From the NCBI GenBank assembly GCA_050260815.1, contig JBLNCQ010000070.1, forward strand, positions 10,518 to 74,517: a DNA stretch of 64,000 bases, written 5' to 3'. Of the stretch, positions 7,239 through 49,649 are shown piece after piece (position 1 is the stretch's first letter; every line of letters starts with the position of its first letter). The position numbers were made by a program, and so were the translations under genes. The DNA comes from Bacillota bacterium (lineage in GTDB: Bacteria > Bacillota > Sulfobacillia > JAMDAP01). The notes beneath the pieces are model-generated. The model was given only the letters and a program-made list of their open reading frames with translations, was not told the origin of the DNA and made no database searches.

Positions 7239-7268
7239 ATAGAACCCCCCGGTTTGCGGAATTGGCGC

Positions 7269-8432: not shown

Positions 8433-8487
8433 AACCATCAACACCATTCCGTAGACGTCCTGATCGTCGTCTTTGGACGCGCCGCAA

Positions 8488-9759: not shown

Positions 9760-9794
9760 CTATGCACCTCCCTTCGCATTCACTTCAATACCAG

Positions 9795-10727
9795 TCAGTC
9801 TCTAAGCAACGTACCGACTCGGCGCCCGACATGCTTCAACACATCTATTGCCAAAGAACCAAGAATAAGGGCGGGTTGAGGGCTTCGGAACAGCGTATGC
9901 TGCGCTTCGCCATAAAGTCGCAAGTGCAAGAAACGCTTCACAAGCTCCACTCGATGCTTGTACTCGGGGCCGGGAGCGGTTGTAAGCCGTCGATCTATAC
10001 GTGCTCGAGTTTCGTCGTCTAGGAACCGCGTAATGAGCAGCGCGTTCTCTTTGATGATGGCTCTTCTCACAGCAGGCTGCTGACTGAGTTGACGTTCATG
10101 AATCCTCCTCAATCCAACGACGTCATTCATGTAGACTGAAGAATAGCCGTGATAAGTCAGCAACAGCCACATTGCGTAGTCCTGGGAGTAGAGAATTCCG
10201 GTGTCGAACAGGCCTAGTTCGAGTGCCGTCTGGCGCTTGACTATCGTCGTTGCCCCATTAACGAAGCAACCAAACACCAAATCGACGAACCAGTCGTGTT
10301 CTATTAGGCCATCGACGTCCCAACCAAGAGCGAAACGAACTAGTGGAGGGAAGAACTCCTGGTGGTTATTGAACTGCCTATAGTCACCAAAATAGAAGTC
10401 AGCATCTGGGTATCGGTTCATATAGTGGCTGATGACCGCTCCAGCTTCAGGTGTGTAGAGGTCATCTGAAGATAGCCAAGCAACGTACTTGGTTTCTGCG
10501 GCAGCGATTCCCGTGTTCAGTGCTGAGGAAATACCTCGGTTGGATGCATGCCTAATGCATCGGACACCCGATTCTCTGGCCTCGTCGAATGTGCTATCAG
10601 TGGAGCCATCATCGACAACTATTATCCGCTCGCGCTGGGAACCGAGGGCCCGTTGAGCCGACTCAATTGACTCCCGCAGATAGGCAGCTGCGTTATAGGC
10701 AGGAATAATGACGGTGATGTCGTTCAC
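9795..10727 (-). CDS. glycosyltransferase family 2
   Basis: N-terminus ITVIIPAYNAAAYLRESIES...VVDDGSTD, with DxD-type motifs. Confidence 0.8.
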   Translation of the reverse strand: MNDITVIIPAYNAAAYLRESIESAQRALGSQRERIIVVDDGSTDSTFDEARESGVRCIRHASNRGISSALNTGIAAAETKYVAWLSSDDLYTPEAGAVISHYMNRYPDADFYFGDYRQFNNHQEFFPPLVRFALGWDVDGLIEHDWFVDLVFGCFVNGATTIVKRQTALELGLFDTGILYSQDYAMWLLLTYHGYSSVYMNDVVGLRRIHERQLSQQPAVRRAIIKENALLITRFLDDETRARIDRRLTTAPGPEYKHRVELVKRFLHLRLYGEAQHTLFRSPQPALILGSLAIDVLKHVGRRVGTLLRD

Positions 10728-10798
10728 GGTATCTTGGCAACCTCCTTGCCACCCGGATCATCTTGCACTTCATTGGGCGAGGCCGCTCTGAGGGTTGC

Positions 10799-18486: not shown

Positions 18487-20328
18487 TCAAGGTGCGTCCG
18501 TGAACGTCACCACAATGGTCTGCGCCGTGTAGGTCCCGGAGGAGATGCTCCCGGCCGCCATGACGCGGTCGCCCACTTCAAGGCTGCTGAACGAGACCTC
18601 GCCGCCGTGCTTGATCACGATAGCGCCGGTAGGCACCTTGATGACCTTGCGCGTTGCACCGCTGGGGGCGATCGGCTCATCCGTGATGGCAATGGTGATC
18701 TCACGCCGGGATGCGTTGACCGCCGTGATGACCCCGGCCAGTTCCTGCAGGTATTCCTTGTTGGCGATCGTCACCCGCGTGGCGCTGCTGCCGGAGGCCG
18801 TGATCTCCACGTAGGCCCCCAATCGTACATCGGAGATGGTGATGGCCCGGCTGTTCTCGTAGATGCTCACGTTGGAGGGAATCTGGTAGACCTGCTCCGG
18901 GTTGGTGCCCACCGTCACGCCAATGGCGGGAGCCGTAGTTGACACAACCACCGAGGTGACGAAGCCCCGCACCGTGCGGCTGACGCTGCTAGCGCTGATA
19001 GCCGTCACCCGGTCGTTGGCCAGGGTCAGGGTGACCCGATCACCGACCCAGATGTCGTCGGCCGAGGCCGACCGGCCATCCTTCTTGATGCTGATAGAGG
19101 TTGAGGACAAGGTGTACGACCTGTCCGTACCGCTGACCGTCAGGGTGATGGTGCGGGCCCCCACCGGGAAGGCGTCGGCCAGGGTGCCGGTTACGCTGGT
19201 GGTGTCGGTGGTGGCGTCGATCTCCGTGACCTTGTCGTCCACCAGGGTGAGCGTGAGCCGGTCGCCGACCATCAGGTCGTCATCGTTGGCCGCCACGTCG
19301 TCCCGGTGGATTACCGGCGACGTGGTGGCCACCGCGTAGGACGTGGTCGAACCACTCACCGTGACAACGATCCGCTTGGTCGCGGCATTGAAGTCGTCGG
19401 CCAGGATGCCGGTCACCGTGCGGTTCGACGTGCCCTCCGCCTCCAGGTAGCCGTAGCCGCCGAGGGGATCGCGCACTGCCGTCACCCTGTCGCCGACGCG
19501 GATAGAACTGAACGTGGTGGGGCTGCCGCCCCGCGCCACCCAGGCCCCCTGGTTGAGGTAGAGGGTGGTGCTGGTGCCGTTGGCCAGGGTCAGCTCCAGG
19601 TGGGGAGCCGTGCCCAGGATCACATCCGTGACCGTGCCCTCCATATCCGTGGTGTCCAGGTTGTTGTCCTGGAGCTTGTCAAGTCGGTCCAACAGGGCGG
19701 CCATCTCGCCGCGGGTCACCGTGTCCAGGGGCCGGAACTTGCCGGCAGCATCGCCCTTGAAGAGCCCCTTGGTGGTGGCGAGGGACACGTAGCCCCGGGC
19801 CCAGAGAGGAATCGAGTACGCGTCCGTGTAGTTGGGCAGCGTGGTGATGCGCTTGGCTTCAGCTTCCTGGCCCAAGGCGCGCACCATCATCACCGCCACC
19901 TGGTAGCGCAGGGCGTCGTCGTTGGGACGGAAGTTGGCGAGGTCCTCATCGTCCAGCAGGCCCAGCGCGATGGCGTAACTCATGTAGCCCCGCGACCAAC
20001 TGGGTAGGGACTGATAGCCCACCATCTGCACGGGCGCCGTGGTGGAGGACCTCGCCTCCTGGTCCAAGCCCTCGGCGCGGACCAACATCACCGCCAGTTC
20101 CAGTCGGCTCACGGCCCGGTTGGGCTCGAACTTGCCGGCGGCCGTGCCCTGCAGGACGCCTTTCAGGCTCATCTTGCGGATGGGCGACTCCGCCCAGTGG
20201 CCGGAGGCATCAGAGAAGTAGGTAGCGGCCTCCACCCTGGTTGTTGGCGCCACGGCAGCAACGGAAGCCAGAACCGCCCCCGCCAGGGTCAGGCTCAGGA
20301 AGCGCTGTATCATCTTCACGTACATCAC
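18487..20328 (-). CDS. SLH-domain surface protein with three tandem ~100-aa repeats
   Basis: 613 aa. Signal peptide, then three N-terminal SLH domains (FSDASGHWAESPI..., YQSLPSWSRGYMSYAIALGL..., YTDAYSIPLWARGYVSLATTKGL...). Three repeated modules follow, of the form TVTG.LAD.F......I.VTVSG...SY.....S..I...D. Confidence 0.8.
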   Translation of the reverse strand: MMYVKMIQRFLSLTLAGAVLASVAAVAPTTRVEAATYFSDASGHWAESPIRKMSLKGVLQGTAAGKFEPNRAVSRLELAVMLVRAEGLDQEARSSTTAPVQMVGYQSLPSWSRGYMSYAIALGLLDDEDLANFRPNDDALRYQVAVMMVRALGQEAEAKRITTLPNYTDAYSIPLWARGYVSLATTKGLFKGDAAGKFRPLDTVTRGEMAALLDRLDKLQDNNLDTTDMEGTVTDVILGTAPHLELTLANGTSTTLYLNQGAWVARGGSPTTFSSIRVGDRVTAVRDPLGGYGYLEAEGTSNRTVTGILADDFNAATKRIVVTVSGSTTSYAVATTSPVIHRDDVAANDDDLMVGDRLTLTLVDDKVTEIDATTDTTSVTGTLADAFPVGARTITLTVSGTDRSYTLSSTSISIKKDGRSASADDIWVGDRVTLTLANDRVTAISASSVSRTVRGFVTSVVVSTTAPAIGVTVGTNPEQVYQIPSNVSIYENSRAITISDVRLGAYVEITASGSSATRVTIANKEYLQELAGVITAVNASRREITIAITDEPIAPSGATRKVIKVPTGAIVIKHGGEVSFSSLEVGDRVMAAGSISSGTYTAQTIVVTFTDAP

Positions 20329-27197: not shown

Positions 27198-27277
27198 GAT
27201 TGTATGTTCGTTCTTGATTGTACGTGTTCGACTCTGTTCTTAGAACTCCTTCTGAGCGGCCAGAGTTTTCTTAGAAC
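27198..27277. promoter_or_regulatory. candidate DeoR operator region: two copies of the 11-bp palindrome (G)TTCTTAGAAC, plus a direct repeat GATTGTAYGT(G)TTCG
   Basis: The palindromes are at 27236-27246 (GTTCTTAGAAC) and 27267-27277 (tTTCTTAGAAC), 31 bp apart and just upstream of the regulator start at 27156. Direct repeats are at 27198-27210 and 27216-27230. Confidence 0.35.
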
Positions 27278-27369
27278 CTTCCGTACGCCAACCTGCTGGC
27301 CGGGGCCCCGCCGTCGCTCGGGCTTCCGGCATTCCTCCGCTGTGCGGCCGCCCCGGTGACACGAGCCGG

Positions 27370-33797: not shown

Positions 33798-36221
33798 CTA
33801 CTCGACGATCACGATCGCCACGACGATACCATCGCCGTCCACGTACACCTTGACCGAGTTATCAGTCGAGATGTTAGCGAACTCGGTGGCACCCGGCGTG
33901 GAGCCCGTGTAATCGAACACCTGAGTGTCCTCAGTCGCAGTCACAGGATCGCCGGTAGTCGGGTAGACGACCAGGTTGGTGGCGTCCACAGAATCGACAG
34001 TGATCGGGGCAGGATCAGCAAACTCACTGAGGTTCGAGATCTCAGTGCCGTCTGCAAAGAAGCTGATTACATCGCCCACTGCCAAATCGTCATAATCGCC
34101 GCTGGCAACCTCGTAATCCTTCGAGGCGCCCTCAGAGATAACGGAGACAAAGTAGCCATCGGCGGTCCGGTAACGACCGGAGACGATGCCGACCTTGTCG
34201 GTGGCGGCGGCGATGTCACCCTTGACCACGATGGTGCCGACAACGATGCTGTCGGTCTTCAAGGTGATCGCGGCGCTGACAGTCGAACCATCCTTCGCAG
34301 CTTCGAGTTCCGCCCGGGTCAGGACAGCGAAACTCGTGCCGTCAGCGGACTCCTGGAAAATCGGAGTGCTGCTGCCAAGTGCGTAAACCGCATTAGTGAC
34401 AGTATCCTGCAGAGTGTGGTTGTCCTTCTTAACGTTGTACGTGGTGGGGCTGTCCACATCAGCATACAGGCTGATCTCATCAATTGCACCGTCGGAGTCG
34501 ACGGTGTAGCCAATAACGGTACCAGCCTTGTTCGTCAGGGCAGCCTGAGCAGATGCAAAGCCAGCGTCGTAGTCGACCGTGTTGCCATCAACATCAGCCT
34601 TGTTGGCGATCTTCAGCGTCGCCTTGGTACCATCGGACTTCAGCACCTTGACGTACATGACCTGGCCGTCCGTGGTGGTAACCACGAGCGGAGCCTCAGC
34701 CGTCAGGAGCGCATAGGCCTTAGTCGGGGCAGCCGCGGCATCAACTGCAACGACCTTGCCATCCTTGTTCAGGTAGACCGTGGTGGTCTCACCAAGCGAG
34801 GAATCAAAATCGTTGGGATCAAGCTTGGCACCATCAGCCTCAGCCGACTGGTCAGCAGCCTTATAGGCAGTCCCGTCGATATAGAAGGAAGAGGACGTGA
34901 TCTTCGTCAGCTCGCCCTTCTTGGCATTACGGGTAACTACCACGAGGTAGCTGTTGTCAGTGGCGCTGATCTTCGCGTATTGGACAACGTCGCCAGCCTT
35001 GATGTCCTCGAACTTGGTGGCAGCGCCAGAGTAGGTGACGCTTTCACCGTCTAGAGTGATGGACTTGCCATTCTCGAAGTACACACGGGTGTAGGTCGAG
35101 CTCGTCTTGTCAACAAGACCAGTCTCGTAGCCGATGCCAACAACATAAGACACGCTACGACCGTCGTAGATCACAGCGATCTCGTCGCCAGCCTCGAAGG
35201 CACTGACGCCGCCCTCAGTCGCGAAGTTGCGGACGTACGTGGTTTCCGCGGGCAGAGTGACCTTGACGTTATCATCCGTGACGGAGATGCCGTCGGTGAT
35301 TCCATCGGCGGGGCTAGTATCAACTACGGTACCGGTCTTGATGCTGGTGGACGGAGTCTTGTCCTCGACAAAGAAGACGCTACCGTCCTTGCCAGTCCAA
35401 GCCTTCACCTTGTGGCCAAGGAGGCGAGCAACATCGACGCTGCCAAGGTCCAGAACCTCGTCACCATCAGCGGTGGCGACGGTAATGGTGGCATCAAGAG
35501 AGCCGTCAAGGCCCGGGACGGACGTCAGCGTGCCTTCGTAAGCGGTGGCGCCCAGGGCAGTGTTCAGCAGGTTCTTGCCCTCGGCGATCTTGTAGGTGAT
35601 CTGGCCGTTCGTAACGCCATCCTCAACCATCAGGTCGATGGTCAGGGAATTGTCGACGAACAGGGCCACGTCACCACGGGTCGCCGGAGCAGAGCCGCCG
35701 CCGGAGATGGCGACGCCGCTGCTAACGCCAATCTGAGCAGCCTTGGCGAGATAGTTTGCGGGCCAGATTCCCCGGCCTTCGGTCACCGGAGCATAACCCA
35801 GCATGCGAACGATGATCGTCAGAGCCTGAGCATAGGTGACCGGATCTTCCGGACCGAACTTACCGTCCGGATAACCGGCAATCAGACCCTGCTGGCTGGC
35901 CACGTTGATGTAGCCAGAAGCCCAGTAATCGGCAGCCACGTCAGAGAACTTGGTAGCGCCCTTGGCGAAGTTCGCCGCGGACTCGAGGCCAAGCGCACGG
36001 ACGGCGATAGCCGCAAACTGAGCGCGGGTAACGCTGTCCTTAACGCCGAAGTTGCCATCCGGATAACCGGTGACAATTCCGAGGGCGTTCAGGCGGGTAG
36101 CGGCAGCGGCGGTCTTGCTGTCAGTGATGTCCGGGAAGGACGTGGCAGCAAACGCAGTGCCGACCATGCCGAAGAGCATCGCGACCACGGTGATGGCCAC
36201 GAGCGCCTTCTTCAAAGTCAT
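33798..36221 (-). CDS. S-layer (SLH-domain) protein, probable major surface-layer protein
   Basis: 807 aa. Signal peptide MTLKKALVAITVVAMLFGMVGTAFA, then three SLH domains (FPDITDSKTAAAATRLNALGIVTGYPDGNFG..., FSDVAADYWASGYINVASQQGLIAGYPDGKFGP..., then IWPANYLAKAAQIGV). A long Thr/Val/Asp-rich beta region follows. RBS AAGGGGGA; about 800 bp of upstream leader. Confidence 0.85.
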   Translation of the reverse strand: MTLKKALVAITVVAMLFGMVGTAFAATSFPDITDSKTAAAATRLNALGIVTGYPDGNFGVKDSVTRAQFAAIAVRALGLESAANFAKGATKFSDVAADYWASGYINVASQQGLIAGYPDGKFGPEDPVTYAQALTIIVRMLGYAPVTEGRGIWPANYLAKAAQIGVSSGVAISGGGSAPATRGDVALFVDNSLTIDLMVEDGVTNGQITYKIAEGKNLLNTALGATAYEGTLTSVPGLDGSLDATITVATADGDEVLDLGSVDVARLLGHKVKAWTGKDGSVFFVEDKTPSTSIKTGTVVDTSPADGITDGISVTDDNVKVTLPAETTYVRNFATEGGVSAFEAGDEIAVIYDGRSVSYVVGIGYETGLVDKTSSTYTRVYFENGKSITLDGESVTYSGAATKFEDIKAGDVVQYAKISATDNSYLVVVTRNAKKGELTKITSSSFYIDGTAYKAADQSAEADGAKLDPNDFDSSLGETTTVYLNKDGKVVAVDAAAAPTKAYALLTAEAPLVVTTTDGQVMYVKVLKSDGTKATLKIANKADVDGNTVDYDAGFASAQAALTNKAGTVIGYTVDSDGAIDEISLYADVDSPTTYNVKKDNHTLQDTVTNAVYALGSSTPIFQESADGTSFAVLTRAELEAAKDGSTVSAAITLKTDSIVVGTIVVKGDIAAATDKVGIVSGRYRTADGYFVSVISEGASKDYEVASGDYDDLAVGDVISFFADGTEISNLSEFADPAPITVDSVDATNLVVYPTTGDPVTATEDTQVFDYTGSTPGATEFANISTDNSVKVYVDGDGIVVAIVIVE

Positions 36222-37035
36222 GTCTTCAAATCCCCCTTGTGATTTGGTCTTTCCTCGGTTCCCCGAGAAAAACGAAGCCTGTTGGACACTCCTACGCTAG
36301 TTGGGAGCATCACTCCTTTCACAGGAAAGCCTGTGAAACTTTATCATTCATACCTGCCAAAGGCATGTGCAGCGCACGCGTTGCAGATTCCTCTGAGAGG
36401 TTTGAAGGATTCATGACCTTGTGTTGCCTATTCAGCTTTCAAGGTGCGGGCCCTTGCGGGCCGGGGTCCGCCGTCCAGCGGCGGGTCTTGCGCCCTACTG
36501 AATGAGGGCTATGAGATCACGGGCTGGTTCACCGCCCTTGCAGGGGTGGCCCGGACCTGACGGGGTAACATAGTTCGGTGCCTGACAACCCTCTCCTGCT
36601 TTGGAGCCCCTAGAAAGTTTCGGAGCTTGTTGGCAAGATTTGTGGGCCATCCTGGGTCCTCTGCCTGTTCCTTTATAAACTGGCGTCCTTGCCCAAGCTG
36701 GAGGGCACCGTGGAGCCCCTGGCCGATCGGGACAGGGCCGTGGTCCTGGTTCCTTTCGACCAGCTTTTCCACAAATCCTCCCGGTTCTTGGGGCTTCGCC
36801 TTGTCGTCCGCCCCCGGGAGGCTATTCCTGGCCGACGGTAGATGGACGTTCGGTTCCCCCGATTTGTTCCCAACCGGCGAAGATTTTTCTTGGGTTTTTA
36901 AGGACAGCCTGTATTGGCAAGCCTTGGACCCCTTTGGTAGAACCGGTAATCAGACGAAGCCCCGGCAAAGTTCCGGGGAGCGCCGACGTAGGTTGTTGCC
37001 AGCTCAGATTTGGCCAGCGGACGCCAAAAGGCGCT

Positions 37036-38348
37036 TCAGGATGACCACGGCCTCCGCTCGGGTGGCGTGCTCGGCCAGGGCAAACCGCCCCCGTCTCGCC
37101 CGCGCATCCAGCCGTTGGCCAGGGCGAGGGCAGCCGCCTCACGTGCCCAGGCGGACACGGCGGGCCCGTCGGCCATGCTGTGGAGCCTCGCCAGCGCCTG
37201 ATCCGGGTCCGTGGGGGGCATTCCGTACTTCGCCGCAGTCCGCTTGATCATCACCGCCATTTCCTGCCGGGTGATCGGTGCGTCCGGGCGGAACTGCCCG
37301 TCGGAGCCAAGGATCAGGCCTTCATGGGCTGCCGTGGAGACTGATCGGGCGTACCAGGCTGACGGCGCCACGTCGGCGAAGGGGCTCGGCCCCTGCGATT
37401 CCGCTAGCCCCAGGGCTCGCACCAGCAGGGCGGCAAACTGCGCGCGCGTGATGACCCCAGCGGGGTCGAACCGGCTGCCGTCGCCCCCACCGCGGGCGAT
37501 CTGGCGGGCGGCCATCATTTCCACGTCATCTTTGGCCCAATGGGCGGCCAAGTCGGCAAAAGACCGGGCGTACTCCAGCACGGCGTACTCGCTGAACGAC
37601 GGCGCGGTGAAGGTGATGGTTCGCGCCTGCGTATCCGCCCTCCCGCCGCGGTAGTCCCAGGCACCGGCCTCCTCGTTATAGCGGTACACGCCCAGTCTGG
37701 CGGGGTTGGAGCCGGGCGAGTAGGGGAGGGTGACCTGCAGGGGATGCCGGGGCAGCGAGACCAGGGACGCCGTCACTGCCGCTGGTCTCCAGCACCAGCA
37801 GGTACGCACCGCCCGCCGACGTGAGCCCTCCCCTGCGCGCCTCTTCCAGGCGGTCGGAGAGGGTTTCGGGGGCCTTGCCGATCACGACGTGGGGGCGGCG
37901 TCTGGACGTCGGCCATGGCCTCCTTGGGCAGGGCGAGCCTGGCGCCCAGCGCGGTCACAGTGACGGCCGCGCCCCTCTCCGCCAGTGCCTGCACCACCTC
38001 AGGCGGCAGGTCCACCGTGACGGTGTGGACCGCAGCGCGACCCGCAGGCGGGTCGGCGGGGATAGTCAGCATGCCGCCCGTTGCGCGGTCGGCTGCAAAC
38101 GACGCCAACGTTAAGGTGCCTTCCCTGCCCGTGTCGTCGAACGTCCAGGTTCCCAGAGGGGGCGGCTCGAAGGATCGGGACGGGCCGGCGGACGGCGAAG
38201 GCGTGGTGGATTGGGCGGTGGCGGTGAGCAAGCCCTGGTAGTCGCCGGTGTTGATGATGGCGGTCAGGGTGTACGGCTCCTCAAACGTGCCCGACGGGAT
38301 GGCCACCGTGCTGCTGCCCAGTTGGAGCAGCGTGCCGTTGAACATCAC
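37036..38348 (-). pseudogene. decayed SLH-domain protein gene (5'-truncated and frameshifted)
   Basis: Two overlapping ORFs in different frames, 37773..38348 (N-terminal part) and 37036..37809 (C-terminal part with SLH domains RFDPAGVITRAQFAALLVRALGL and FADVAPSAWYARSVSTAAHEGLILGSDGQFRPDAPITRQEMAV). No signal peptide. The protein-like in-frame sequence continues upstream of the first Met until a stop at about 38425, where the AT-rich insert begins. Confidence 0.5.
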
Positions 38349-38481
38349 GGCGCCGTTCTTGTCCTGGATCTGCAGCGTGGGCAGGACGGCGTTGTAGGAG
38401 GCGTCCAGCAGTGCAAGGTCGAAACTCTTGTTCGCTTTTCTCGTCTAAACTCTCGCGATAATTTCGTGGAGGTGCTTCAAA

Positions 38482-38679
38482 ATGCTTCGGCTGCTGGTGA
38501 GAGTCAGGGACAGCCAAACAATTGAAAAGCTTAAGGCCCTGGCAAAGATCACCTACATCTCGCAGTTGACCAACACGGTCGGGATTGAGGTGGCTTCTGA
38601 GGCGGCTGCAGCTAAGATAGCTAGGATCCAGGGTGTTCTGACGGTCGACGAAGATACTGAAGTGAGCATCTTAAAGTAG
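38482..38679 (+). CDS. small protein (65 aa), possible peptidase-inhibitor-I9/propeptide-like fold; unknown function
   Basis: RBS GGAGGTG 9 nt upstream of ATG. It has its own terminator and is embedded in an AT-rich segment (38400-38480) unlike the flanking DNA. IEKLKALAKITYISQLTNTVGIEVASEAAAAKIARIQGVLTVDEDTEV resembles the C-terminal half of subtilisin propeptide (I9) domains. Confidence 0.45.
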   Translation: MLRLLVRVRDSQTIEKLKALAKITYISQLTNTVGIEVASEAAAAKIARIQGVLTVDEDTEVSILK

Positions 38680-38702
38680 GTCGCCAAAGTCTTTGTTTGG
38701 CG

Positions 38703-38733: not shown

Positions 38734-38852
38734 CCCAGAGTCCTTACGGGGCGATCTGATGCAAATCCCGGGAGATCGCCACGGCCTCTGCCCGGCTGGC
38801 CGGTCCCCGGAGAGCGATGCGCCCGCCGTCCCGGCCCTTCATTGCGACTAGA

Positions 38853-38875
38853 AAGGGCGCCCGCTGGGGGCGCCC
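38853..38875 (-). terminator. GC-rich palindromic hairpin after the SLH gene (terminator or REP-like element)
   Basis: agggcgccc gctgg gggcgccct, 19 nt after the stop at 38894. It shares an identical 13-mer ggcgcccgctggg with the hairpin at 48082-48106. Confidence 0.35.
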
Positions 38876-38893: not shown

Positions 38894-40111
38894 TTACGGT
38901 GTAGCAGTGGTCTCCACGGTGGTCGTGCCCGTCGCCGGCTGGACCGGGTTCACCGTCTCCTTTAGCTGCAGGAACCGCTCAATCAGGGCCGCGGCCTGGG
39001 CCCTGTCCGCCGGCAGGTTGGGCTGGAACGTGCCGTCGTCCATGCCCTTGATCAGGCCCAGCCTGGCCGCCAGCTCCACCGAGCCGCGGGCCCACTCGGG
39101 AACGCTGCTCGCATCCGTGAACTGGGTGGCGCCGCCCTGCTTCGCCAGGGCCTCGGCCTGGTCCTCCAGGCCCAGGGCCCGGATCAGCAGGACGGCCATC
39201 TGGGCGCGGGTGAGGGGCTGAGTGGGATCAAAGGCCTCGTCGTTATCGCCCTTGACGATGCCGTGGGACTCCGCCGCTCCAATGTATTGCGATGCCCAGA
39301 AGCCGTCGGGAAGGTCCTGAAAGCCCTTCATCGCCTGGTTGTCGGTGTTCAGGTTGGCCGCCAGCGACAGCATCTTGATGAACTGGGCGCCCTCCACCTT
39401 CTCCTGGGGCTGGAAGGTCCCGTCCGCCGTGCCGTTCACGATCCCCATGGCCACCAGCTTGGCGATGACGTCCTCGGCCCAGTTGCCCTTGACGTCGGTG
39501 AGCTTGGCCATGGCCGCGCCGGGCTTGACGATGCGCTTCTCGACCTCGCCCACCTTCTTGCCGCTGGCGTCGTAGACCGAGAGCTTGATGCTGTTCTTGC
39601 CCGGTTCCAGGGGCAGATCGGCCAGATTGAAGGTGCCGTCTGCGTTAACCGGCACGGTGAGGACCTGCTCGCCGCCCGCGTTCTCCACCTTGACCTTCAC
39701 GGTGTAGCCGTCCTTGACCAGACCGCTGATGTCGATGGCGGCGTCGCTAGTCACGGAGCCGTCCTGGGGAAGGGTGATGACAACGCCGTCCTCCATCTCC
39801 TCTTCCACTTCATCCAGAGCCTCGGCCTGGGCCTCGAGAGCGGCCTCCAGGGCATCGTCCTCTTCGTCGCTGCCCTGGTCGTCCGCCTCGTCCTCCGGCT
39901 CATCCTCGTCCTCCGCGTCCTGGTGGTCGTCTTCTTCGTCCAGGGTCGATGAAGAGGAGTCACCTTGCAGGGCCGGATCAGAGGGACCGGAACTGGTTGG
40001 GGTCACCGGGCTGGTGGCATCCGTCCCCGAGGCGCCGGCATAGGCCACGCTGGCATTCACCAGCAGCACCGCCAGGGCCACGGCGAGGAGCCGCATGATC
40101 CGCTTGCTCAT
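38894..40111 (-). CDS. SLH-domain surface protein with acidic N-terminal region and Ig-like domain
   Basis: 405 aa. Signal peptide, a D/E-rich low-complexity stretch, a beta-domain (TVKVKVENAGGEQVLTVPVNADGTFN), then three C-terminal SLH domains (LTDVKGNWAEDVIAKLVAMGIVNG..., FQDLPDGFWASQYIGAAESHGIVKG..., FTDASSVPEWARGSVELAARLGLIKG). Confidence 0.8.
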   Translation of the reverse strand: MSKRIMRLLAVALAVLLVNASVAYAGASGTDATSPVTPTSSGPSDPALQGDSSSSTLDEEDDHQDAEDEDEPEDEADDQGSDEEDDALEAALEAQAEALDEVEEEMEDGVVITLPQDGSVTSDAAIDISGLVKDGYTVKVKVENAGGEQVLTVPVNADGTFNLADLPLEPGKNSIKLSVYDASGKKVGEVEKRIVKPGAAMAKLTDVKGNWAEDVIAKLVAMGIVNGTADGTFQPQEKVEGAQFIKMLSLAANLNTDNQAMKGFQDLPDGFWASQYIGAAESHGIVKGDNDEAFDPTQPLTRAQMAVLLIRALGLEDQAEALAKQGGATQFTDASSVPEWARGSVELAARLGLIKGMDDGTFQPNLPADRAQAAALIERFLQLKETVNPVQPATGTTTVETTATP

Positions 40112-40227: not shown

Positions 40228-41517
40228 CTAGTGGTCCGGGGTTTCAGGGGCGTCCGCTTCGGCGGATTCCTCCTCCGGGCCCTCCCTTGCGTCGTCCGGG
40301 GCGTCAATCGACGGGGTATCCGCCGGCTCCGCTTCCTCTAGACCCAAGTCTGTCTGCTCGTCGCGGTCTTCGGTCTCCGCTGCCGGGCCATCAGGCTCGG
40401 CGCGTTCCGGTTCGGACGGCGCCTGCTGGGCGCCCTCCAAGTGGGCGGGGGCTGACGAGGCATCGTCCTGCTCGTCGCCTTCCTCGCGGGCGGCGGGCAC
40501 CGTCTCGTTTCGCTGCTCAGCCGCGCTGCCGGATTCCCCATCCGCGGTACCGTCGGCGGATCGGTCCTCCGGGTCGTCACGCCCGCTGTCGCCGTCGTTG
40601 GGGCCTTCCGCCTGGGCACTCTGATCAACCCGCTGGCCCGCAGGGTAGAGGTCGCTGGGGTCCATCCCCGCCCCGCGGAAGAAGTCGGCCAGGCTCTGGC
40701 CGCGCAAGGCCTCCTCGGAGTAGAGCACGCCCCTGCCCGTCAGCTCCCGTTTCACGGCTTCCCGGTTGACGGAGAGGCGGTCGAGCTGGGCGTCCTTGCG
40801 AAGGCTGGCGGTGGTCTGCGAAACGGCCACAAAACCGCTCAGGCCCTTGTCCTTCAGGCGGGTGGCGATGTCGCGCTGCACGGCGGCCGGATCCGGCCCC
40901 TCCCCACCTGTGAGGGAGACGACCGCCGCCACTACCACGTTGTCACGGTCGGGCCCCAGATAGCCAAAAGCCGCTGCCTGGTCGATCACGCGGTTGACAG
41001 CTTCATCTAGAGTCAGTCCCTTTACCGGCTGGGCCTCCAGAACGCGTTGGGCATCATGGTTGAGGGCGGTGCTCTGCAGCACCTCCCCCTGCCGATCCAC
41101 CTCCAGCTCCAGGCTGGGGTTGATGTCGATGGCTACTACGGCCACGGGCCGGGGCAGCAGAACCCGCGGCAGAACGGTGAAGGCCAGGACGGCCGCCGTC
41201 GCCAGCGCGAACCCTGCCCGCGCCCACGTGGCCGGGCCAACGCGGGCGTGCAGCCACGATTCCGCCCAGCTCCGGGCCGGTCGGTCTGCCGGGGCGTCCT
41301 CGGCGGCTCCTCCCTGCTGCGCCACGGCTGCCTCCGGAGGAGGCCAGGGGAGTTCAAGTTCCCTGCCCCGCCAGGCCCGCAGGACCTCGACAGGCAGTTC
41401 CGACTCGGCGGCGGGCAGGTGGCCCCGCAGGAACTTCAGGGAGACGGTGCGAAACTCGCCCTCCCGGGTCATGAGGACGGCCTGGTCGTCCAACACCTGC
41501 GCCAACAGGCATTTCAT
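40228..41517 (-). CDS. rsgI: anti-sigma-I factor RsgI-like. It has an N-terminal RsgI_N domain, one TM, a juxtamembrane folded segment and a long acidic disordered C-terminus.
   Basis: N-terminus MKCLLAQVLDDQAVLMTREGEFRTVSL matches the RsgI_N pattern G.V.EV.D.YAVVLT.DGEF. TM is GFALATAAVLAFTVL. The last 130 aa are very D/E/A/P-rich. It overlaps sigI by 4 nt. Confidence 0.7.
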   Translation of the reverse strand: MKCLLAQVLDDQAVLMTREGEFRTVSLKFLRGHLPAAESELPVEVLRAWRGRELELPWPPPEAAVAQQGGAAEDAPADRPARSWAESWLHARVGPATWARAGFALATAAVLAFTVLPRVLLPRPVAVVAIDINPSLELEVDRQGEVLQSTALNHDAQRVLEAQPVKGLTLDEAVNRVIDQAAAFGYLGPDRDNVVVAAVVSLTGGEGPDPAAVQRDIATRLKDKGLSGFVAVSQTTASLRKDAQLDRLSVNREAVKRELTGRGVLYSEEALRGQSLADFFRGAGMDPSDLYPAGQRVDQSAQAEGPNDGDSGRDDPEDRSADGTADGESGSAAEQRNETVPAAREEGDEQDDASSAPAHLEGAQQAPSEPERAEPDGPAAETEDRDEQTDLGLEEAEPADTPSIDAPDDAREGPEEESAEADAPETPDH

Positions 41518-42299
41518 AGGGCCCGTCCCCCCTCTTCCCCGGTTTGACCTGGCGAGGCCTCGCCGTTCGATGCCACCGTGCCGGTCGGCTCCAGCTTAAT
41601 GAAGCCCTTCAAATGGGTGTAGTCGTCGGTCCCCAGGATCAGGGCTACGGCGATGATGTACTTGCGCCCGGTCTCCAGCACCTTGCGGCTGAGGCCGGTG
41701 ACCCCCTGCAACTGCTTGATGGGCAGTTGGCCCTTACGCGTGAGGCTGCGCATGAGGGCCGCGTCCGAGGCCAGCCGTGCGGCGGCGCGCTGCAGGGAGA
41801 GGCGCGTATCCCGGTGGCGGGGACAGATTACGCCCAGCTCCGCCAGGGACGTGCCGTATCGTCTCAGGGCCAGATCGTAGCGCGCCAGGTCATCGGCCCG
41901 GTCCGCCATGTCCTCCTGCTCCCGATAAGCCGACGCGGCTGGCCCTGCCTCCAGGGGCGCGATCGCCCCGTCGTCGCCCTCCTCATCGGGGACGGCGCCG
42001 TCCAGCAACAGGGGCGCCTGTGCCGGCTGGCGGCGGAACCAGTCGACCAGCCGGTGGTGAATGACCATACTCGCGTGCCCAAGGAAAGACCTACCCGCCT
42101 CCGGGTTGAAGGTGTCGATAGCCTCGTTGAAGGCCAGCAGGCTCACGCTCAGTTCGTCGTCGTTGTGCCAGTCCAGGGGGCGGCGGCAGACCCTGGACGC
42201 GGCCTGCCTGATAAACGCCCGATGCCGGCTGATCAGCTCTTCCCGGGCCTGCTCGTCGCCGTCCTGCGAGTGGCGCAGCAGGTCCATCAGGACCGTGTC
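41514..42299 (-). CDS. sigI: RNA polymerase sigma factor SigI
   Basis: MDTVLMDLLRHSQDGDEQAREELISRHRAFIRQAAS...DDELSVSLLAFNEAIDTFNPEAGRSFLGHASMVIHHRLVDWFRR is highly typical of SigI region 2. Start taken at the internal Met with RBS AAAGGTGGGGAG; the track ORF's 96-aa N-extension was rejected. Confidence 0.75.
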   Translation of the reverse strand, partial: DTVLMDLLRHSQDGDEQAREELISRHRAFIRQAASRVCRRPLDWHNDDELSVSLLAFNEAIDTFNPEAGRSFLGHASMVIHHRLVDWFRRQPAQAPLLLDGAVPDEEGDDGAIAPLEAGPAASAYREQEDMADRADDLARYDLALRRYGTSLAELGVICPRHRDTRLSLQRAAARLASDAALMRSLTRKGQLPIKQLQGVTGLSRKVLETGRKYIIAVALILGTDDYTHLKGFIKLEPTGTVASNGEASPGQTGEEGGRAL

Positions 42300-42732
42300 C
42301 ATAGCTCTCCCCACCTTTCCATCCGACGAGCCGCCCTCCGTTTCGGGGGGCACCCGGCCGCGGCTCTCTCCACTAGCCGGCCGTCTTGGACCCGCTCCGT
42401 CACCCGGTCGCGCGAACGCAAAAACCGGCAAGCATGCCGAAGGCCTGGTTGCCGGTCGAATGGCGGGTCGGGAATCCGCCCCTTGCGGGCGGCGCCGAAT
42501 AACGCCTTGGCTGCGGCAACCGGCTGTCCTGGCCTCCCCGTCCGCCCCGACTCCCCTTGGGAGCCGGCTGGCGCGCTTTACCCGCATCCAGCAGGCAATG
42601 AGGCTGTAGACCCATGGCTTTGCGCCCCCGAGCTTTCACCCGGGGTGGCCCTTTTCGGTTTTCCGGCTATACGCATTCGACGGAAAGGGGTAAATTCCTT
42701 CCGTTTGAGGCAGAAAGTTCCTGCTAGTGTCG

Positions 42733-44866: not shown

Positions 44867-47797
44867 TTAGTACCTCAGCATCCTCGCCACCAGGGCCGCG
44901 CCCTGGGCTCGCGTCAGGCTGCCGCTGGGGTTATAGATCATCCGCCCGCCTTCCACGTAGCCCGTGACCAGCCCCTTCTCCTCCAGCGCCTGCACGGCGG
45001 ACCGGCCCGCGTACGAGCCCAGGTCCGTCAGGTTGCTGTGGAATCCGGCGCTGGGGGCACTGAGCCGCAGGGCCGCGGCGATGAGCTGCGCCGCCTCACC
45101 CCGGGTGATGGGATCCTGGGGGTGGAAGGGCGACACCAGGATCTGCCCCGCCCCGGGCTGGCCCGCCTGGTCGGGCGGCAGGGAGGTCGGATCGATGTTC
45201 ACCAGCTGCCCCTCCGCCTCGTCCACGAGTCCGGCCAGCAGGCCCTTTTCCTCTAACGCCTCCACGTAGGGCTTGGACCAGTGGCCGTTCAGGTCGCTGA
45301 TGCGGCTGCTGAAGTTGACCGAGGGCTGGGTCAGGGCCAGGTAGCGGGCCACCATGGCGGCCAGCTCCCCTTTCAGCAGGGGCAGGTCCACGCCGAAGCG
45401 ACCGTCCGGCAGGCCGTTGACCATGTTGGCGGCGGCGATGGCCTGGATGTCGGTCCGGGCCCAGTTGGTGGCCGTGTCGCTGAAGGACGGCTGCGGCAGG
45501 GCCGGCGACGGCCTGGCCGCCACGGCGTAGAGGTAGCCGTCCATGGATCCCACGTAGGCGGTGTAAGTGCCTGCGAAGCCGCTGCCGGCTGTCGACGGGG
45601 TCGGCGCCGCGGTAGGCGTCCCAAAAATGAAGTTGTCACCCAGGGCGTAGGTCCAGAGGACCTGGCCGGTGGTGGGGTTCTCGCTCACCAGGCGGCCGCT
45701 CAGGCTGCCCACGACCACGTCGCCGCCCTGCCCAAAGTCGACCGGGCTGGAGTCATACGTGGACCAGCCCGACGAGGCCTTCCCCTGAATCTGTCCGGTG
45801 AGGGGGTCCAGGGTGAGGGCGCTGCCGTCCGAGGTGCCCACCAGCAGGCTGCCCGCGCGAAGCTGCGGGCTGGAGAAGCTGGTGCCCAGGCTGGATGTCC
45901 AGAGGGCGGTGCCATCGTCCGGGTTGAGCGCCCGCAGCCCGATGGACCCGGTCTTGGCGTCCTGCGGCGTGGTCACGAACAGGCGGCCGAAGCCGTAAAT
46001 GGGCGAGCCGTTCGATGGCGAGTAGTAGATGTCACGGCCCAGGGCCTGGGTCCAGCGGACCCGGCCGGTCACTGCATCCAGGGCGTACAGGTTCCGGTCC
46101 CACGCGCCCACGTAGACCAGGCCGCGGCCGTAGGCCGGCTTGACGCGTATGGCGTCACCGGCGGTGAAGTGCCAGCGCTCGCTGCCGTCCGACGCCTTGA
46201 GAGCGTAGAGATTGTGGTCGGTGGAGCCGATGTAGACGGTGTCACCCACTACCAGCGGCGCGCCCACCACGGAGCCCTGGGTGGCGCGCGACCAGACCAG
46301 GCGGCCATTGGCGGCATCAAGGGCGTAGACGCGCCCGTTCGCCGAGCCGAAGTAGAGGCGGCCGTTGGCCAGGGTGGGGCCGGAGATAATCGCCCCGCCG
46401 GTCGAGAAGACCCAGGCCTGCGTGCCCTTGTCGGCGCGAACGGCGTAGAGACGGCCGTCCGACGAGCCAACGTACACCAGCGACCCGTCCGTCGCGGGCT
46501 GGCCCTGGATGCCGCCGCCGGTGGCGAAGCGCCAGCGCAGGGTCGGCACGCTGTCGAAGAGCGGCCCGTCGGAGACGGCGCCGTTTGTGCCGCCGGCCGC
46601 CCCGTCGCTCCCGGCCGGCCGCAGGTAGCCGTCCAGCCGGATCTCGACGTGGTCGACGTAGCGCTTGCCCGCCGGGTCATAGGCCTGGACGTAGAGATCG
46701 TGGATGCCCGGCGGCAGGCCCTTCAGGTCGATGGAGCCCGTGCCGTTGTACGTACCCTCCGCCCCGTAGGCTACGGGGACGTCAAGATTCTGCCACGAGC
46801 CCGCGTCCAGGCGGTACTGCGCCTTGTCAGGCGCCTGCTCAACGAAGCCCGTGAGCTGATACTTGAAGCTCAGCGTCTGCGTGGCCGGGCCCTTGACGGT
46901 CGTCCCCGTGACCGGCGAGGTGATGCGCAGCAGTTGCCGCTGGGTGGGCCTGGTCAGCGGGATCGTGGCGGCCAGCTCAGGCTGGGCGCCCGCCACCTGG
47001 TTGTAGATCCTGGCCTCACCGCCCTCCACCTGGATGACCTTGAAGCCGGCGTCCATGACGGCGGCGGTCATGAAGGCGGGGATGCCGTTCACGCTCCACT
47101 GCAGGTTCGTGTGGCCGTGGCCGGAGAACAGGGCCACCACGTTATACGGTTGCACGATGTCCAGGAAGTCCTGGTCGTTGTCCAGGAAGCGGCTGGGCGT
47201 GTACCCGATGGGATGATGGCTGAAGACCATCACCGGCGTCGAGGTGCCCACCTTCTTCAGGTCGGCGGCCAGCCAGTCCAGCATGGCCTTCTCCAGGTGG
47301 CCGTGGGTCTCGGCGCTGATGGACGTGTCCAGCAGCACGAAGTGGATGCCGCCCTGATCGAAGGACGAGTAGGGCTGGCCGAAGCGGGCGGTGAAGCCCA
47401 TCTTGCCGGCGTCCGACCAGCGGGCATCGTGGTTGCCGGGGACGTGGTAGACGGGAATGTTGGCGTCCCGCCAGGGCTTGATCATCTGCTGGTAGAGGTC
47501 ATAGTGGTGGGGCAGGCCGAACTCGGTCACGTCCCCGCCGTTGATAATAAAGGCGGGCCGCGGGTTGTTGGCCAGCACCTGGTCCACAACCTTGGGCATG
47601 TTGGTGTTGCCGGCGCTGGACCCGGCGTGCGGGTCGGTGATGGTGACGAAGGTGAAGTCGTCCGCCGCCAGGGCGGTGCGGGGCCGGAACAAGCCGGGGC
47701 CCGGCGCCAGGATGGAGCCGAAACCCATGACGAACAACAAGGCCAGGGCCGTACCCGCCGCCAGCAGCCGGGCCGGCCTGCGGAGCCGTTGAAGCAT
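44867..47797 (-). CDS. S-layer-anchored multidomain protein: calcineurin-like metallophosphoesterase, PQQ-repeat beta-propeller and three C-terminal SLH domains
   Basis: 976 aa. Signal peptide. Phosphoesterase motifs ITDPHAG, GGDVTEFG, GNHDARW and SGHGHTN. There are many copies of the PQQ-like repeat (G.LYA.DA.TG...W). SLH domains begin FSDTATNWARTDIQAIAAANMVNG..., ISDLNGHWSKPYVEALEEKGLLAG... and LTDLGSYAGRSAVQALEEKGLVTG... Confidence 0.85.
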   Translation of the reverse strand: MLQRLRRPARLLAAGTALALLFVMGFGSILAPGPGLFRPRTALAADDFTFVTITDPHAGSSAGNTNMPKVVDQVLANNPRPAFIINGGDVTEFGLPHHYDLYQQMIKPWRDANIPVYHVPGNHDARWSDAGKMGFTARFGQPYSSFDQGGIHFVLLDTSISAETHGHLEKAMLDWLAADLKKVGTSTPVMVFSHHPIGYTPSRFLDNDQDFLDIVQPYNVVALFSGHGHTNLQWSVNGIPAFMTAAVMDAGFKVIQVEGGEARIYNQVAGAQPELAATIPLTRPTQRQLLRITSPVTGTTVKGPATQTLSFKYQLTGFVEQAPDKAQYRLDAGSWQNLDVPVAYGAEGTYNGTGSIDLKGLPPGIHDLYVQAYDPAGKRYVDHVEIRLDGYLRPAGSDGAAGGTNGAVSDGPLFDSVPTLRWRFATGGGIQGQPATDGSLVYVGSSDGRLYAVRADKGTQAWVFSTGGAIISGPTLANGRLYFGSANGRVYALDAANGRLVWSRATQGSVVGAPLVVGDTVYIGSTDHNLYALKASDGSERWHFTAGDAIRVKPAYGRGLVYVGAWDRNLYALDAVTGRVRWTQALGRDIYYSPSNGSPIYGFGRLFVTTPQDAKTGSIGLRALNPDDGTALWTSSLGTSFSSPQLRAGSLLVGTSDGSALTLDPLTGQIQGKASSGWSTYDSSPVDFGQGGDVVVGSLSGRLVSENPTTGQVLWTYALGDNFIFGTPTAAPTPSTAGSGFAGTYTAYVGSMDGYLYAVAARPSPALPQPSFSDTATNWARTDIQAIAAANMVNGLPDGRFGVDLPLLKGELAAMVARYLALTQPSVNFSSRISDLNGHWSKPYVEALEEKGLLAGLVDEAEGQLVNIDPTSLPPDQAGQPGAGQILVSPFHPQDPITRGEAAQLIAAALRLSAPSAGFHSNLTDLGSYAGRSAVQALEEKGLVTGYVEGGRMIYNPSGSLTRAQGAALVARMLRY

Positions 47798-48584: not shown

Positions 48585-49649
48585 CTACAGCTCCGCCGGC
48601 CCGATGATGGACAGGTCCGACCCGGCCAGGTCCACGACAATCGGCGTCTGGCTAAGGCGGCGACCGGCGGGATCGCGCATCAGGCGCACCTGCGGGCGGT
48701 AAAAGTCGGCGACGTTCACGGACACCACCAAGGCCACGGAATGGTCGCTCAAACGCACCACGGTAGCTGGTGGATAGGGCACCACAAAGCTGGTCAGCCG
48801 GCGGATGAAGATCTCGTCCAGCTTGGTCCCGGCCTGCTCGTGCAGGATGCGCAGCCCGGCCTCAGGGCTGAGCCGGCTGCGGTAAATGCGGTCGCTGGTG
48901 ACGGCGTCGTACACGTCGGCCACGGCCACCAGCTTGGCATATTCGATGATGTCCTGGCCCTTCAGGCCGCGCGGGTAGCCGGTGCCATCGAGCCGCTCGT
49001 GGTGCTGGAAGGCCACATGGGCCACCATCAGCCCCACGTCAAATTGGCTGCGAAGGGTGTTGAACCCCAGTTCCGCGTGCTTCTTGACCTGCTCGAACTC
49101 CGGCGCGGTCAGCTCACCCTGCTTCTGCAGGATCTCCTGCGGAACCAGGCACTTGCCGATGTCGTGCAGGAGGGCCCCGGTCCCCATCTCCAGAAGCTGG
49201 CCCCGGCTGTATCCCAGGGTGCGGCCCACCATCAGGGACAGGATGGCCACATTCACCGAGTGGGCGAAAGTATACCCGTCGAGCGACTTCAAGTCGATCA
49301 TGCCGACGACCAGGTCCTTGGCCGCCATGATCTCGTCCACCAGGTTCTCCACGGCGCGACACACCGATGTCAGGTCCGGCAGCCTCTCCTGGGGAATCTG
49401 CGACATGACCTTGTGGATGACCTGCACGGCCTCCATACGCGTCTCCTGCTGCACCACCGTGGGAAGGTCAATGTCGTCGGCCACGCCGTCGCTGACAAAG
49501 ACCGCCGTGTGGCCGAACTCCTGCAGTTTCTTGATGTACGAGCCCTGCAGGGTGACGCCGGCGGACAGCAGAACACGACCGTCCGGTGAATAGACGGTCT
49601 TGGCCAGGCGCATTCCGGATTCGATATGCGGCAAGTCTACGACTCTCAT
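48585..49649 (-). CDS. HD-GYP domain c-di-GMP phosphodiesterase-type protein with N-terminal sensory domain
   Basis: 354 aa; HD motif ALLHDIGK, HHERLDGTGYP (the GYP motif), metal-binding histidines. N-terminal roughly 120-aa uncharacterised domain. Confidence 0.85.
   Translation of the reverse strand: MRVVDLPHIESGMRLAKTVYSPDGRVLLSAGVTLQGSYIKKLQEFGHTAVFVSDGVADDIDLPTVVQQETRMEAVQVIHKVMSQIPQERLPDLTSVCRAVENLVDEIMAAKDLVVGMIDLKSLDGYTFAHSVNVAILSLMVGRTLGYSRGQLLEMGTGALLHDIGKCLVPQEILQKQGELTAPEFEQVKKHAELGFNTLRSQFDVGLMVAHVAFQHHERLDGTGYPRGLKGQDIIEYAKLVAVADVYDAVTSDRIYRSRLSPEAGLRILHEQAGTKLDEIFIRRLTSFVVPYPPATVVRLSDHSVALVVSVNVADFYRPQVRLMRDPAGRRLSQTPIVVDLAGSDLSIIGPAEL

Follow-up and report, generated by a model that had tools for sequence, protein, structure and literature searches.

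A cyclic di-GMP riboswitch appears to link a second messenger to a SigI-RsgI stress sensor in an uncultured, SLH-rich Bacillota lineage

The stretch of DNA analyzed here (the window) comprises 64,000 nt of contig JBLNCQ010000070.1 (assembly GCA_050260815.1, positions 10,518 to 74,517) from a Bacillota bacterium. The host belongs to an uncultured, high-GC, SLH-rich lineage related to Symbiobacteriia. The locus of interest is a three-gene unit, sigI-rsgI-slh405, located entirely on the minus strand and encoding a sigma-I factor, an anti-sigma-I factor, and a protein with SLH domains. It was compared with related sigI loci, which are labeled L002, L013, L017, L034, etc., and syntenic relatives share the gene order around the unit. 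In the direction of transcription, the unit consists of a candidate promoter (P1), a cyclic di-GMP (c-di-GMP)-I riboswitch with terminator, a second promoter (P2), sigI, rsgI, a third promoter (P3), slh405, and a closing terminator. These features are given below in window positions, as are all other coordinates.

42694-42666, minus strand: P1, candidate sigma-A-like promoter (TTTACC at 42694-42689, 17-nt spacer, TATAGC at 42671-42666), proposed from a conserved block
42660-42512, minus strand: c-di-GMP-I (GEMM-I) aptamer with a 64-nt structured insertion in its second hairpin, from Rfam RF01051
42457-42419, minus strand: intrinsic terminator of the expression platform, GACCGGCAA...UUGCCGG followed by UUUUUG, from a terminator scan
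42350-42322, minus strand: P2, predicted sigma-I-type autoregulatory promoter, CCCCCCGAAA-N15-CGGA (full site gtgCCCCCCGAAAcggagggcggctcgtCGGAtgg), from motif scan and conservation
42302-41514, minus strand: sigI, 262-aa sigma-I factor with its ATG at 42302, from NCBIfam, Pfam, and PDB matches
41517-40228, minus strand: rsgI, 429-aa anti-sigma-I factor, from Pfam RsgI_M, AlphaFold2 (AF2), and Foldseek
41116-41121, minus strand: codons of Asn133-Pro134, the predicted autoproteolytic site-1 bond in a DINPS motif, from conservation and PDB alignment
40166-40138, minus strand: P3, predicted sigma-I-type promoter, CCCCCCGAAA-N15-CGTA (full site gtaCCCCCCGAAAccccggccacccaccCGTAtgg), from motif scan and conservation
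38894-40111, minus strand: slh405, third gene and predicted SigI target, encoding SLH405 (405 aa), with three Pfam SLH domains (E=9.7e-39) and Glucodextran_B (2.6e-9)
38850-38875, minus strand: intrinsic terminator closing the unit, GGGCGCCC-CCAGC-GGGCGCCC then UUUCU, an RNAfold hairpin whose sequence is conserved in L013

The first two genes share the tetranucleotide ATGA, confirming the SigI/RsgI pair with a 4-nt overlap that had been described in the initial annotation. Ten NCBIfam SigI models align with SigI over their full length (aa 4-237, E below 1e-30), the best of which is NF006175 (E=1.8e-71, 240.5 bits). Pfam Sigma70_r2 was also detected (E=6e-8), representing the sigma-2 domain that sigma-I factors combine with a SigI-specific C-terminal domain instead of sigma-4. 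Residues 4-225 align with Clostridium thermocellum SigI6 (8I24, 8i24_F; E=4e-25) and likewise with SigI1 (8I23; E about 1e-25), both from structures of open complexes. In these alignments, R162-H163-R164-D165-T166, which is invariant within the clade, is matched to K170-H171-R172-D173-S174 of SigI6, where K170-H171-R172 read the promoter A-tract via the minor groove (PMC10575876). The protein is identical in sequence to NCBI MGE5590122.1, named ‘MAG: sigma factor [Bacillota bacterium]’, where MAG stands for metagenome-assembled genome. In a distant syntenic relative from a Symbiobacteriia MAG, the partner carries the PGAP name ‘anti-sigma-I factor RsgI family protein’. The pair is a further member of a well-studied family, as this existing NCBI name also illustrates. 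Both the NCBI record and the homologs place the start of sigI at the ATG at 42302, 3 nt beyond the gene end at 42299 that was given initially. A longer open reading frame (ORF) of 357 aa, extending sigI to 42587, was rejected as spurious; it overlaps the riboswitch and its terminator.

RsgI is built of an N-terminal domain (aa 1 to ~50), a Pro/Ala-rich cytoplasmic linker (~50-97), a transmembrane (TM) helix (~98-121), a periplasmic/SEAL domain (125-297), and an acidic disordered tail (298-429). Placement of the 429-aa protein in the RsgI family by profile search, which had been proposed as a check on its identity, was obtained with Pfam RsgI_M (PF23750), covering aa 125-256 and model positions 1-131 of 133 (E=1e-24). 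An AF2 model built on a 109-sequence alignment revealed three beta-strands and short helices at aa 1-60, with a predicted local distance difference test (pLDDT) score above 90, and a low-confidence linker at aa 61-100. A helix at aa 95-119 coincides with the hydropathy maximum at aa 101-121, indicating a single TM helix. The ectodomain that follows (aa 125-297) is folded with pLDDT above 95, and aa 300-429 drop to about 50 (47-59). When the model was searched against the PDB with Foldseek, the significant matches were RsgI ectodomains only, with TM-scores (target length) of 0.80-0.82 to C. thermocellum RsgI2-PD (8HDJ, 8hdj_B) and 0.80 to the Bacillus subtilis RsgI SEAL domain (8T9N, 8t9n_A).

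The motif D131-I132-N133-P134-S135 shows no variation within the clade and at least 90% conservation among 109 relatives, and the AF2 model places it between strands 126-131 and 135-140 (beta1/beta2). In a sequence search, P134 aligned with the first residue of chain B, the fragment that starts after the cut, in 8HER, 8HDJ, 8HEQ, and 8U9O. Autocleavage at Asn-Pro, followed by RseP, has been demonstrated experimentally in C. thermocellum (Chen et al., PMC10328401). By this analogy, N133|P134 is the predicted autocleavage site of RsgI.

The tail (aa 289-429: A24, E24, D22, P15, G12, S10) contains 46 D/E (33%) versus 8 K/R, giving a net charge of -38, and has no Lys, 6% hydrophobic residues, and one aromatic residue. 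Its sequence is poorly conserved in four clade homologs, all of which retain the acidic composition. No C-terminal sensing domain was found in RsgI: RsgI_M was the only Pfam match even at E up to 10, and AF2 gave no folded domain beyond aa 297. RsgI thus lacks a carbohydrate-binding module (CBM) or glycoside hydrolase (GH)-like module of the kind that defines the polysaccharide-sensing subclass of C. thermocellum. An exhaustive HMMER search with aa 1-290 retrieved 3437 representatives at E<=0.001. All of the best 109 of these carry RsgI_M; two have an extra Pfam domain (PepSY) and 107 have none, and the architecture of RsgI is therefore the family default, or ‘Bacillus type’. Tails of the relatives have a median length of 146 aa, a median of 13% hydrophobic residues, and net charges from -66 to +29, and the present tail is the fifth most acidic of 102. 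The Asn-Pro at residue 133 is the latest among the relatives (median 89) because about 50 aa of additional Pro/Ala-rich linker precede it on the cytoplasmic side. The peculiarities of RsgI are accordingly its linker, its divergent N-terminal domain, and its strong acidity, and the tail-only architecture is ordinary. The initial reading of the protein as a Bacillus-type envelope sensor without CBM is thus borne out by the autoproteolytic juxtamembrane domain and the disordered tail. Its description of the ectodomain was right about the tail but overestimated the folded part, which spans about 170 aa rather than ~200. The lack of a sensing domain that it singled out is real but nothing special among the nearest relatives.

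Two forms of the sigma-I promoter consensus have been published, namely C-----AAA N13-14 CGWA for cellulosome-producing clostridia and ACCCCC--AA N15 CGAA----T for Bacillales (PMC4711584, Table 1). Scanning the whole window with CCCCC-NN-AA-N14-17-CG-N-A yielded two sites, both on the minus strand. A stricter pattern (CCCCCCNAAA-N15-CGKA) returned the same two only, even when one mismatch was allowed (shuffle expectation 0.22); with two mismatches, the additional matches were at chance level. Both sites, P2 and P3, are correctly oriented and lie <50 nt from start codons. P2 begins 48 nt upstream of sigI and ends 19 nt short of its ATG, and P3 is located in the 116-nt gap between rsgI and slh405, ending 26 nt short of the slh405 ATG. 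The motif recurs at both positions across the related loci L013, L002, L017, L014, L015, L016, and L035 and the distant L034, with the position of P3 conserved in each of them. The boxes and spacing of P2 are invariant, with a variable spacer, in L013, L002, L017, L015, and L034. In the resulting phylogenetic footprint of nine P2/P3 promoters from five lineages, the 15-nt spacer varies freely. Among still more distant loci, whose SigI is 32-45% identical, 19 of 23 have CCCC(C)-N-AAA-N14-15-CG[T/G]A 50-86 nt upstream of sigI.

The pattern CCCCCC-N-AAA-N15-CG[G/T]A agrees with the sigma-I consensus published for Bacillales. We conclude that P2 is a predicted autoregulatory SigI promoter and that P3 makes the slh405 gene a predicted SigI target. 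A sigma-I promoter directly upstream of sigI had been reported missing in the initial annotation, which nevertheless named sigma-I-type promoters nearby as a test of its assignment; P2 lies at the supposedly empty position, and together with P3 it provides such promoters. The wider regulon suggested there, comprising all SLH genes and the polysaccharide cluster, was not recovered: in the 64-kb window, with one mismatch allowed, the motif is absent from all other SLH genes and from the polysaccharide cluster at 0.5-18 kb, leaving slh405 as the only site besides sigI.

SLH405 consists of a signal peptide, an acidic low-complexity region of ~80 aa, an Ig-like Glucodextran_B domain, and three SLH domains. 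Its ortholog directly follows rsgI in every clade locus and is better conserved than RsgI itself (65-86% versus 47-64% identity). No terminator was found within the 116-nt rsgI-slh405 gap; the one past slh405 is strong. The low-complexity region (aa 26-108) is D/E-rich and compositionally similar to the RsgI tail, which hints that the two acidic regions may occupy or probe one wall compartment.

Upstream of sigI, a 430-nt leader separates the gene from a MazE/AbrB-like gene (43086-42733). It is 79-84% identical in L002 and L013, with homology starting abruptly at about 42722, just upstream of P1, and continuing down to the sigI ribosome-binding site on the sigI strand in three lineages. The aptamer matches RF01051 over the full model (1-87) with 46.9 bits (gathering 35, E=4.3e-8), and in a whole-window scan, where it scored 38.8 bits, this was the sole Rfam family above threshold. 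The orthologous leaders score 37.0 bits (L013), 35.1 (L002), and 35.1 (L017). The aptamer keeps the GAAA (GNRA) tetraloop on the first hairpin, the GCGCAAAGCC core, a G at model position 11, and, in the RF01051 alignment, CC in its 3' GCCGCA tail. Shorter 70-nt alignments in L002 and L017 were judged to be sub-optimal alignments to this aptamer in which the long insertion is bypassed, and a sub-threshold c-di-GMP-I-GGC match in L002 was likewise regarded as a sub-optimal alignment of it. The terminator lies 55 nt downstream of the aptamer. Its hairpin is present in L002, L013, and L017 as well as in the window; the lower stem is invariant, and the upper stem has varied yet remained paired. Two similar strands, CCAGCCGGCUCCC and ACAGCCGGUUGCC (42556-42573 and 42512-42529, minus strand), are each able to close the second aptamer helix; both are conserved in L002 and L013 and could be an alternative-pairing switch element. 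The minimum free energy (MFE) of the whole leader is unremarkable (z-score -0.91), speaking neither for nor against a structured RNA.

Transcripts from P1 would begin at about 42660, which is the first aptamer base. We infer its promoter role and sigma-A assignment from the 39-nt block that holds it (42703-42665), which the window shares with L002 and, apart from one C-to-T change, with L013. Reading this block as a sigma-I promoter (AA-N15-CGAA-N4-T) was rejected because the CCCCCC/AAA boxes found in each of the nine P2/P3 promoters are missing from it, and one SigI should read one type of -35 element. A direct repeat, AGGAAYTTT, occurs in two copies 21 nt apart around the P1 -35 (42700-42730) and could be an operator.

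The MazE/AbrB-type protein directly upstream of the riboswitch (117 aa, minus strand) has no obvious toxin partner. A 354-aa HD-GYP protein is encoded 6 kb upstream of the riboswitch (48585-49649, minus strand), with Pfam HD_5, HD at residue 162, HHERLDGTGYP at 214-226, and GYP at 224; the gene is syntenic in L034. Its motifs are consistent with a candidate c-di-GMP phosphodiesterase and with use of c-di-GMP by the organism.

We regard it as probable that the locus is a three-gene sigma-I unit with a Bacillus-type RsgI, two SigI promoters, and a basal supply gated by c-di-GMP. By analogy with the characterized systems, the N-terminal domain of RsgI would hold SigI at the membrane, and the SEAL/periplasmic domain would cleave itself at Asn133-Pro134 with the halves remaining associated. 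A change in the wall or S-layer would then pull on the acidic tail of 130-140 aa and separate the halves, upon which a site-2 protease (RasP/RseP) could cut the TM helix and free SigI. Free SigI would act at P2, in positive autoregulation of its own operon, and at P3, inducing slh405, whose product is predicted to be a wall-anchored Ig-domain protein with an acidic disordered region of its own. P1 would transcribe the riboswitch and terminator before P2 is reached, so that basal, SigI-independent sigI-rsgI mRNA may be gated by c-di-GMP, most likely being OFF at high c-di-GMP. P2 lies downstream of the riboswitch terminator, and the autoregulatory loop would therefore bypass c-di-GMP control.

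Several points weigh against this interpretation. All of the evidence is computational, and the organism is known from MAGs only. The sigma-I and RsgI_N signatures were both called clear at first; the former stands on the ten NCBIfam models, even though the NF006175 score falls 3.5 bits under the curated cutoff of 244, but the latter is not clear to Pfam, where RsgI_N (PF12791) reaches only 11.4-14.4 bits against a cutoff of 25 that 89 of the 109 relatives pass. A profile from the N-termini of 86 related RsgIs does match aa 2-49 with 22.3 bits (KCLLAQVLDDQAVLMTREGEFRTVSL aligned to kGlVlevkgrtviVltpdGeFrrvpl). At P2 and P3, AA and CG[G/T]A are 16 nt apart instead of the published 15, and the -10 box has G or T, rather than A, as its third base. 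P1 matches 8 of 12 sigma-A consensus positions. The two alternative 3' strands lead to competing aptamer alignments (38.8 and 46.9 bits). The riboswitch occurs in three distinct lineages only, with a near-identical aptamer core; covariation is therefore thin, consisting of one-sided changes in the first hairpin and variable insertion hairpins. It was not found in about 30 more distant sigI loci (L003-L012 and L018-L034 searched). Among these, the distant Symbiobacteriia relative L034 has the sigI-rsgI-slh unit without riboswitch, its sigI lying 74 nt after the preceding SLH gene with only P2 in between. The riboswitch is therefore an accessory rather than a core feature.

A further point concerns the polarity of the switch. 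The aptamer 3' strand GGUUGCCG is complementary to the terminator 5' arm CGGCAACC, and this pairing is invariant. When forced, the antiterminator was more stable than the state with the aptamer strand sequestered plus terminator by 7.9 (window), 2.3 (L002), and 5.2 (L013) kcal/mol, as would be predicted for a switch that is OFF when ligand occupies the aptamer. The unconstrained MFE folds of L002 and L013, however, retain the terminator even with the aptamer strand free, and this strand then pairs elsewhere. Given these other partners for the strand, OFF polarity at high c-di-GMP is therefore favored only slightly over even. The riboswitch might instead be an ON switch or respond to 3'3'-cyclic GMP-AMP (cGAMP), in which case a high signal would bring more sigI-rsgI supply; the same folds leave room for this, as does the weak c-di-GMP-I-GGC match in L002. 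Against it stand the invariance and stability of the antiterminator in all three lineages and the base at model position 11, which we take to be the equivalent of G20 of Vc2, where G20, A47, and C92 contact the ligand. The cGAMP-selective GEMM-Ib RNAs typically have A at the G20-equivalent position, whereas the present aptamer has G. An ON or cGAMP-responsive switch thus seems somewhat unlikely.

Returning to the proposed c-di-GMP-gated sigma-I unit, we tentatively extend it, at less than even confidence, to the following model. c-di-GMP would set the basal level or sensitivity of a mechanosensing RsgI, and the activated system would escape by P2 feedback. Its output would be an acidic SLH-anchored protein, and the RsgI tail would probe the compartment of the S-layer and secondary cell-wall polymer rather than peptidoglycan alone. 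In a stronger form of the last idea, the tail would specifically sense the S-layer or the secondary cell-wall polymer (or divalent cations) instead of generically probing gaps in peptidoglycan, with SLH405 as a repair or replacement protein. The unit does lie amid SLH genes, its sole conserved local target is an SLH protein whose low-complexity region resembles the tail, and the strong acidity of the tail is kept in the four clade homologs. In B. subtilis, however, the intrinsically disordered region (IDR) of RsgI is required, yet scrambled and heterologous IDRs are still functional (Brunet et al., PMC9732909), which argues for non-specific sensing. The range of tail charges among the relatives also shows that charge is no family-wide requirement, and no binding domain was detected in RsgI. 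We therefore consider a specific sensor doubtful.

It is quite improbable that the riboswitch does not control sigI at all, belonging instead to the 3' untranslated region (UTR) or terminator of the MazE/AbrB-like gene or acting as an independent c-di-GMP-binding RNA, with sigI-rsgI expressed from P2 only: the position of P2 beyond the terminator, its presence alone in L034 and distant loci, the weak consensus match of P1, and the co-occurrence of the MazE-like gene and the riboswitch (together in L013, L002, and L017, both missing from L034) would fit this, but the complementarity of the terminator 5' arm to the aptamer 3' strand is the layout of a cis-acting platform directed towards the downstream gene, the whole leader is conserved on the sigI strand down to the ribosome-binding site in three lineages, and riboswitches are nearly always 5' leaders.

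The proposed c-di-GMP-gated sigma-I unit resembles the SigI-RsgI system of B. subtilis, which serves cell-wall homeostasis (PMC9732909; SEAL: bioRxiv 10.1101/2023.06.27.546760; PDB 8T9N) in the order of sigI and rsgI. As in B. subtilis RsgI, a single TM helix separates the N-terminal domain, here a predicted sigma binder, from a juxtamembrane domain of the autoproteolytic kind (Foldseek TM-score 0.80), and an extracytoplasmic C-terminal IDR of similar length follows (157 aa versus about 135 aa here). B. subtilis sigI has an autoregulatory promoter of the ACCCCC--AA-N15-CGAA type, as is predicted here. Compared with B. subtilis, the N-terminal domain is divergent and sub-threshold for Pfam RsgI_N, an extra cytoplasmic linker of ~50 aa moves the Asn-Pro to 133, and the tail is strongly acidic without Lys. 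Instead of lytE, mreBH, or bcrC, the predicted local target encodes an SLH-anchored protein, and a c-di-GMP riboswitch precedes the operon in a high-GC, SLH-rich, Symbiobacteriia-related host. With SigI1-9/RsgI1-9 of C. thermocellum (PMC10328401, PMC4711584, PMC10575876; PDB 8HDJ, 8I23, 8I24), the unit shares the fold of the periplasmic domain with the Asn-Pro motif aligned residue for residue, the C-terminal K/R-H-R reader of the A-tract, and promoters with an A-tract, a CGWA-like -10 box, and short 5' UTRs. It differs in that RsgI has no CBM, GH, PA14, or other C-terminal sensing module, a single SigI-RsgI pair is present within the 64-kb window as opposed to 8-9 paralogues, the -35 box is C-rich as in Bacillales, and there are no cellulosomal targets.

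The nearest known analogue of the riboswitch arrangement is Cd1, a c-di-GMP-I riboswitch upstream of the flgB operon of Clostridioides difficile, which includes sigD. Both have the same aptamer class followed by an intrinsic terminator and, as predicted here, OFF polarity, and in both a riboswitch would indirectly set the level of an alternative sigma factor and surface structures. In contrast to Cd1, the present riboswitch stands directly before a sigma/anti-sigma pair under predicted regulated proteolysis, a sigma-dependent promoter lies past the terminator so that autoregulation would bypass the riboswitch, and the second aptamer hairpin carries the 64-nt insertion.

Full-text searches of the available library revealed no literature linking c-di-GMP riboswitches with sigI-rsgI. 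What is new here is the arrangement in series of a c-di-GMP riboswitch and an autoregulated sigI-rsgI operon, and the pair itself is of an already-known kind. If the riboswitch is functional, this arrangement, bypassed by the sigma-I promoter, would join c-di-GMP lifestyle signaling to envelope-stress signaling. For a lineage far removed from Bacillus and C. thermocellum, the comparison also defines the sigma-I promoter (CCCCCC-N-AAA-N15-CG[G/T]A) and a minimal conserved regulon of one SLH protein at the locus. Close relatives by default have an RsgI whose only C-terminal feature is a disordered tail, a finding that lends support to IDR-based sensing as a general model.

The surroundings of the unit were described initially as holding five SLH genes within 33.8-47.8 kb. 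Four genes with Pfam SLH are located there, and the fifth lies outside:

33798-36221: Pfam SLH gene
37036-37776: Pfam SLH gene
38894-40111: Pfam SLH gene (slh405)
44867-47797: Pfam SLH gene
18487-20328: fifth Pfam SLH gene of the window

The ~800 nt upstream of the gene for an 807-aa SLH protein, likely the S-layer protein (36215-37045, minus strand), are 96% identical to L013 6520-7325, and an 87-aa ORF within them (36772-36509) is 97.7% identical in L013. The 807-aa protein itself is only 40% identical to its L013 counterpart, compared with 64-86% for neighboring proteins. The pattern suggests either that a long leader or small gene is ultra-conserved here or that co-occurring populations recombined recently; no Rfam family was above threshold in 36215-37045. 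A match to CCCACAAA-N16-CGAA upstream of the same gene (36641-36614) was rejected as a sigma-I promoter, its spacing being out of range. The region around it is 96% conserved throughout, and the conservation of this match is therefore uninformative.

Between this region and slh405, a 191-aa ORF and a 246-aa SLH ORF (37036-38348, minus strand) overlap by 4 nt and jointly correspond to a single 445-aa SLH gene in L013 (5192-6529), representing either a split gene or a frameshift. Upstream of them, an insertion of ~330 nt (38350-38700) that L013 lacks carries a 65-aa ORF on the opposite strand (38482-38679). It also contains a sigma-I look-alike (38489-38458, minus strand), which was treated as chance. 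A second look-alike, at 27253-27222 (minus strand), was treated in the same way. It falls within tandem direct repeats, GAAGG(A/T)TTCTAAGAA, at 27222-27300 (minus strand) upstream of a DeoR-family regulator (27156-26395) heading a phosphotransferase system (PTS)/sugar operon; these repeats look like the DeoR operator and are the source of the false match.

The polysaccharide cluster at 0.5-18 kb encodes glycosyltransferases, Wzy, Wzz, and epimerases. Its part at 1-12000, with GT4 glycosyltransferases, UDP-GlcNAc 2-epimerase, UDP-sugar dehydrogenase, and Wzy, has a GC content of 54-58% versus 62-70% elsewhere in the window, which suggests horizontal acquisition. The gene at 44867-47797 (minus strand), which always lies upstream of the sigI unit, encodes a 976-aa protein in which an SLH domain is joined to a calcineurin-like phosphoesterase and a PQQ/BamB-type beta-propeller; its L002 counterpart is 86% identical.

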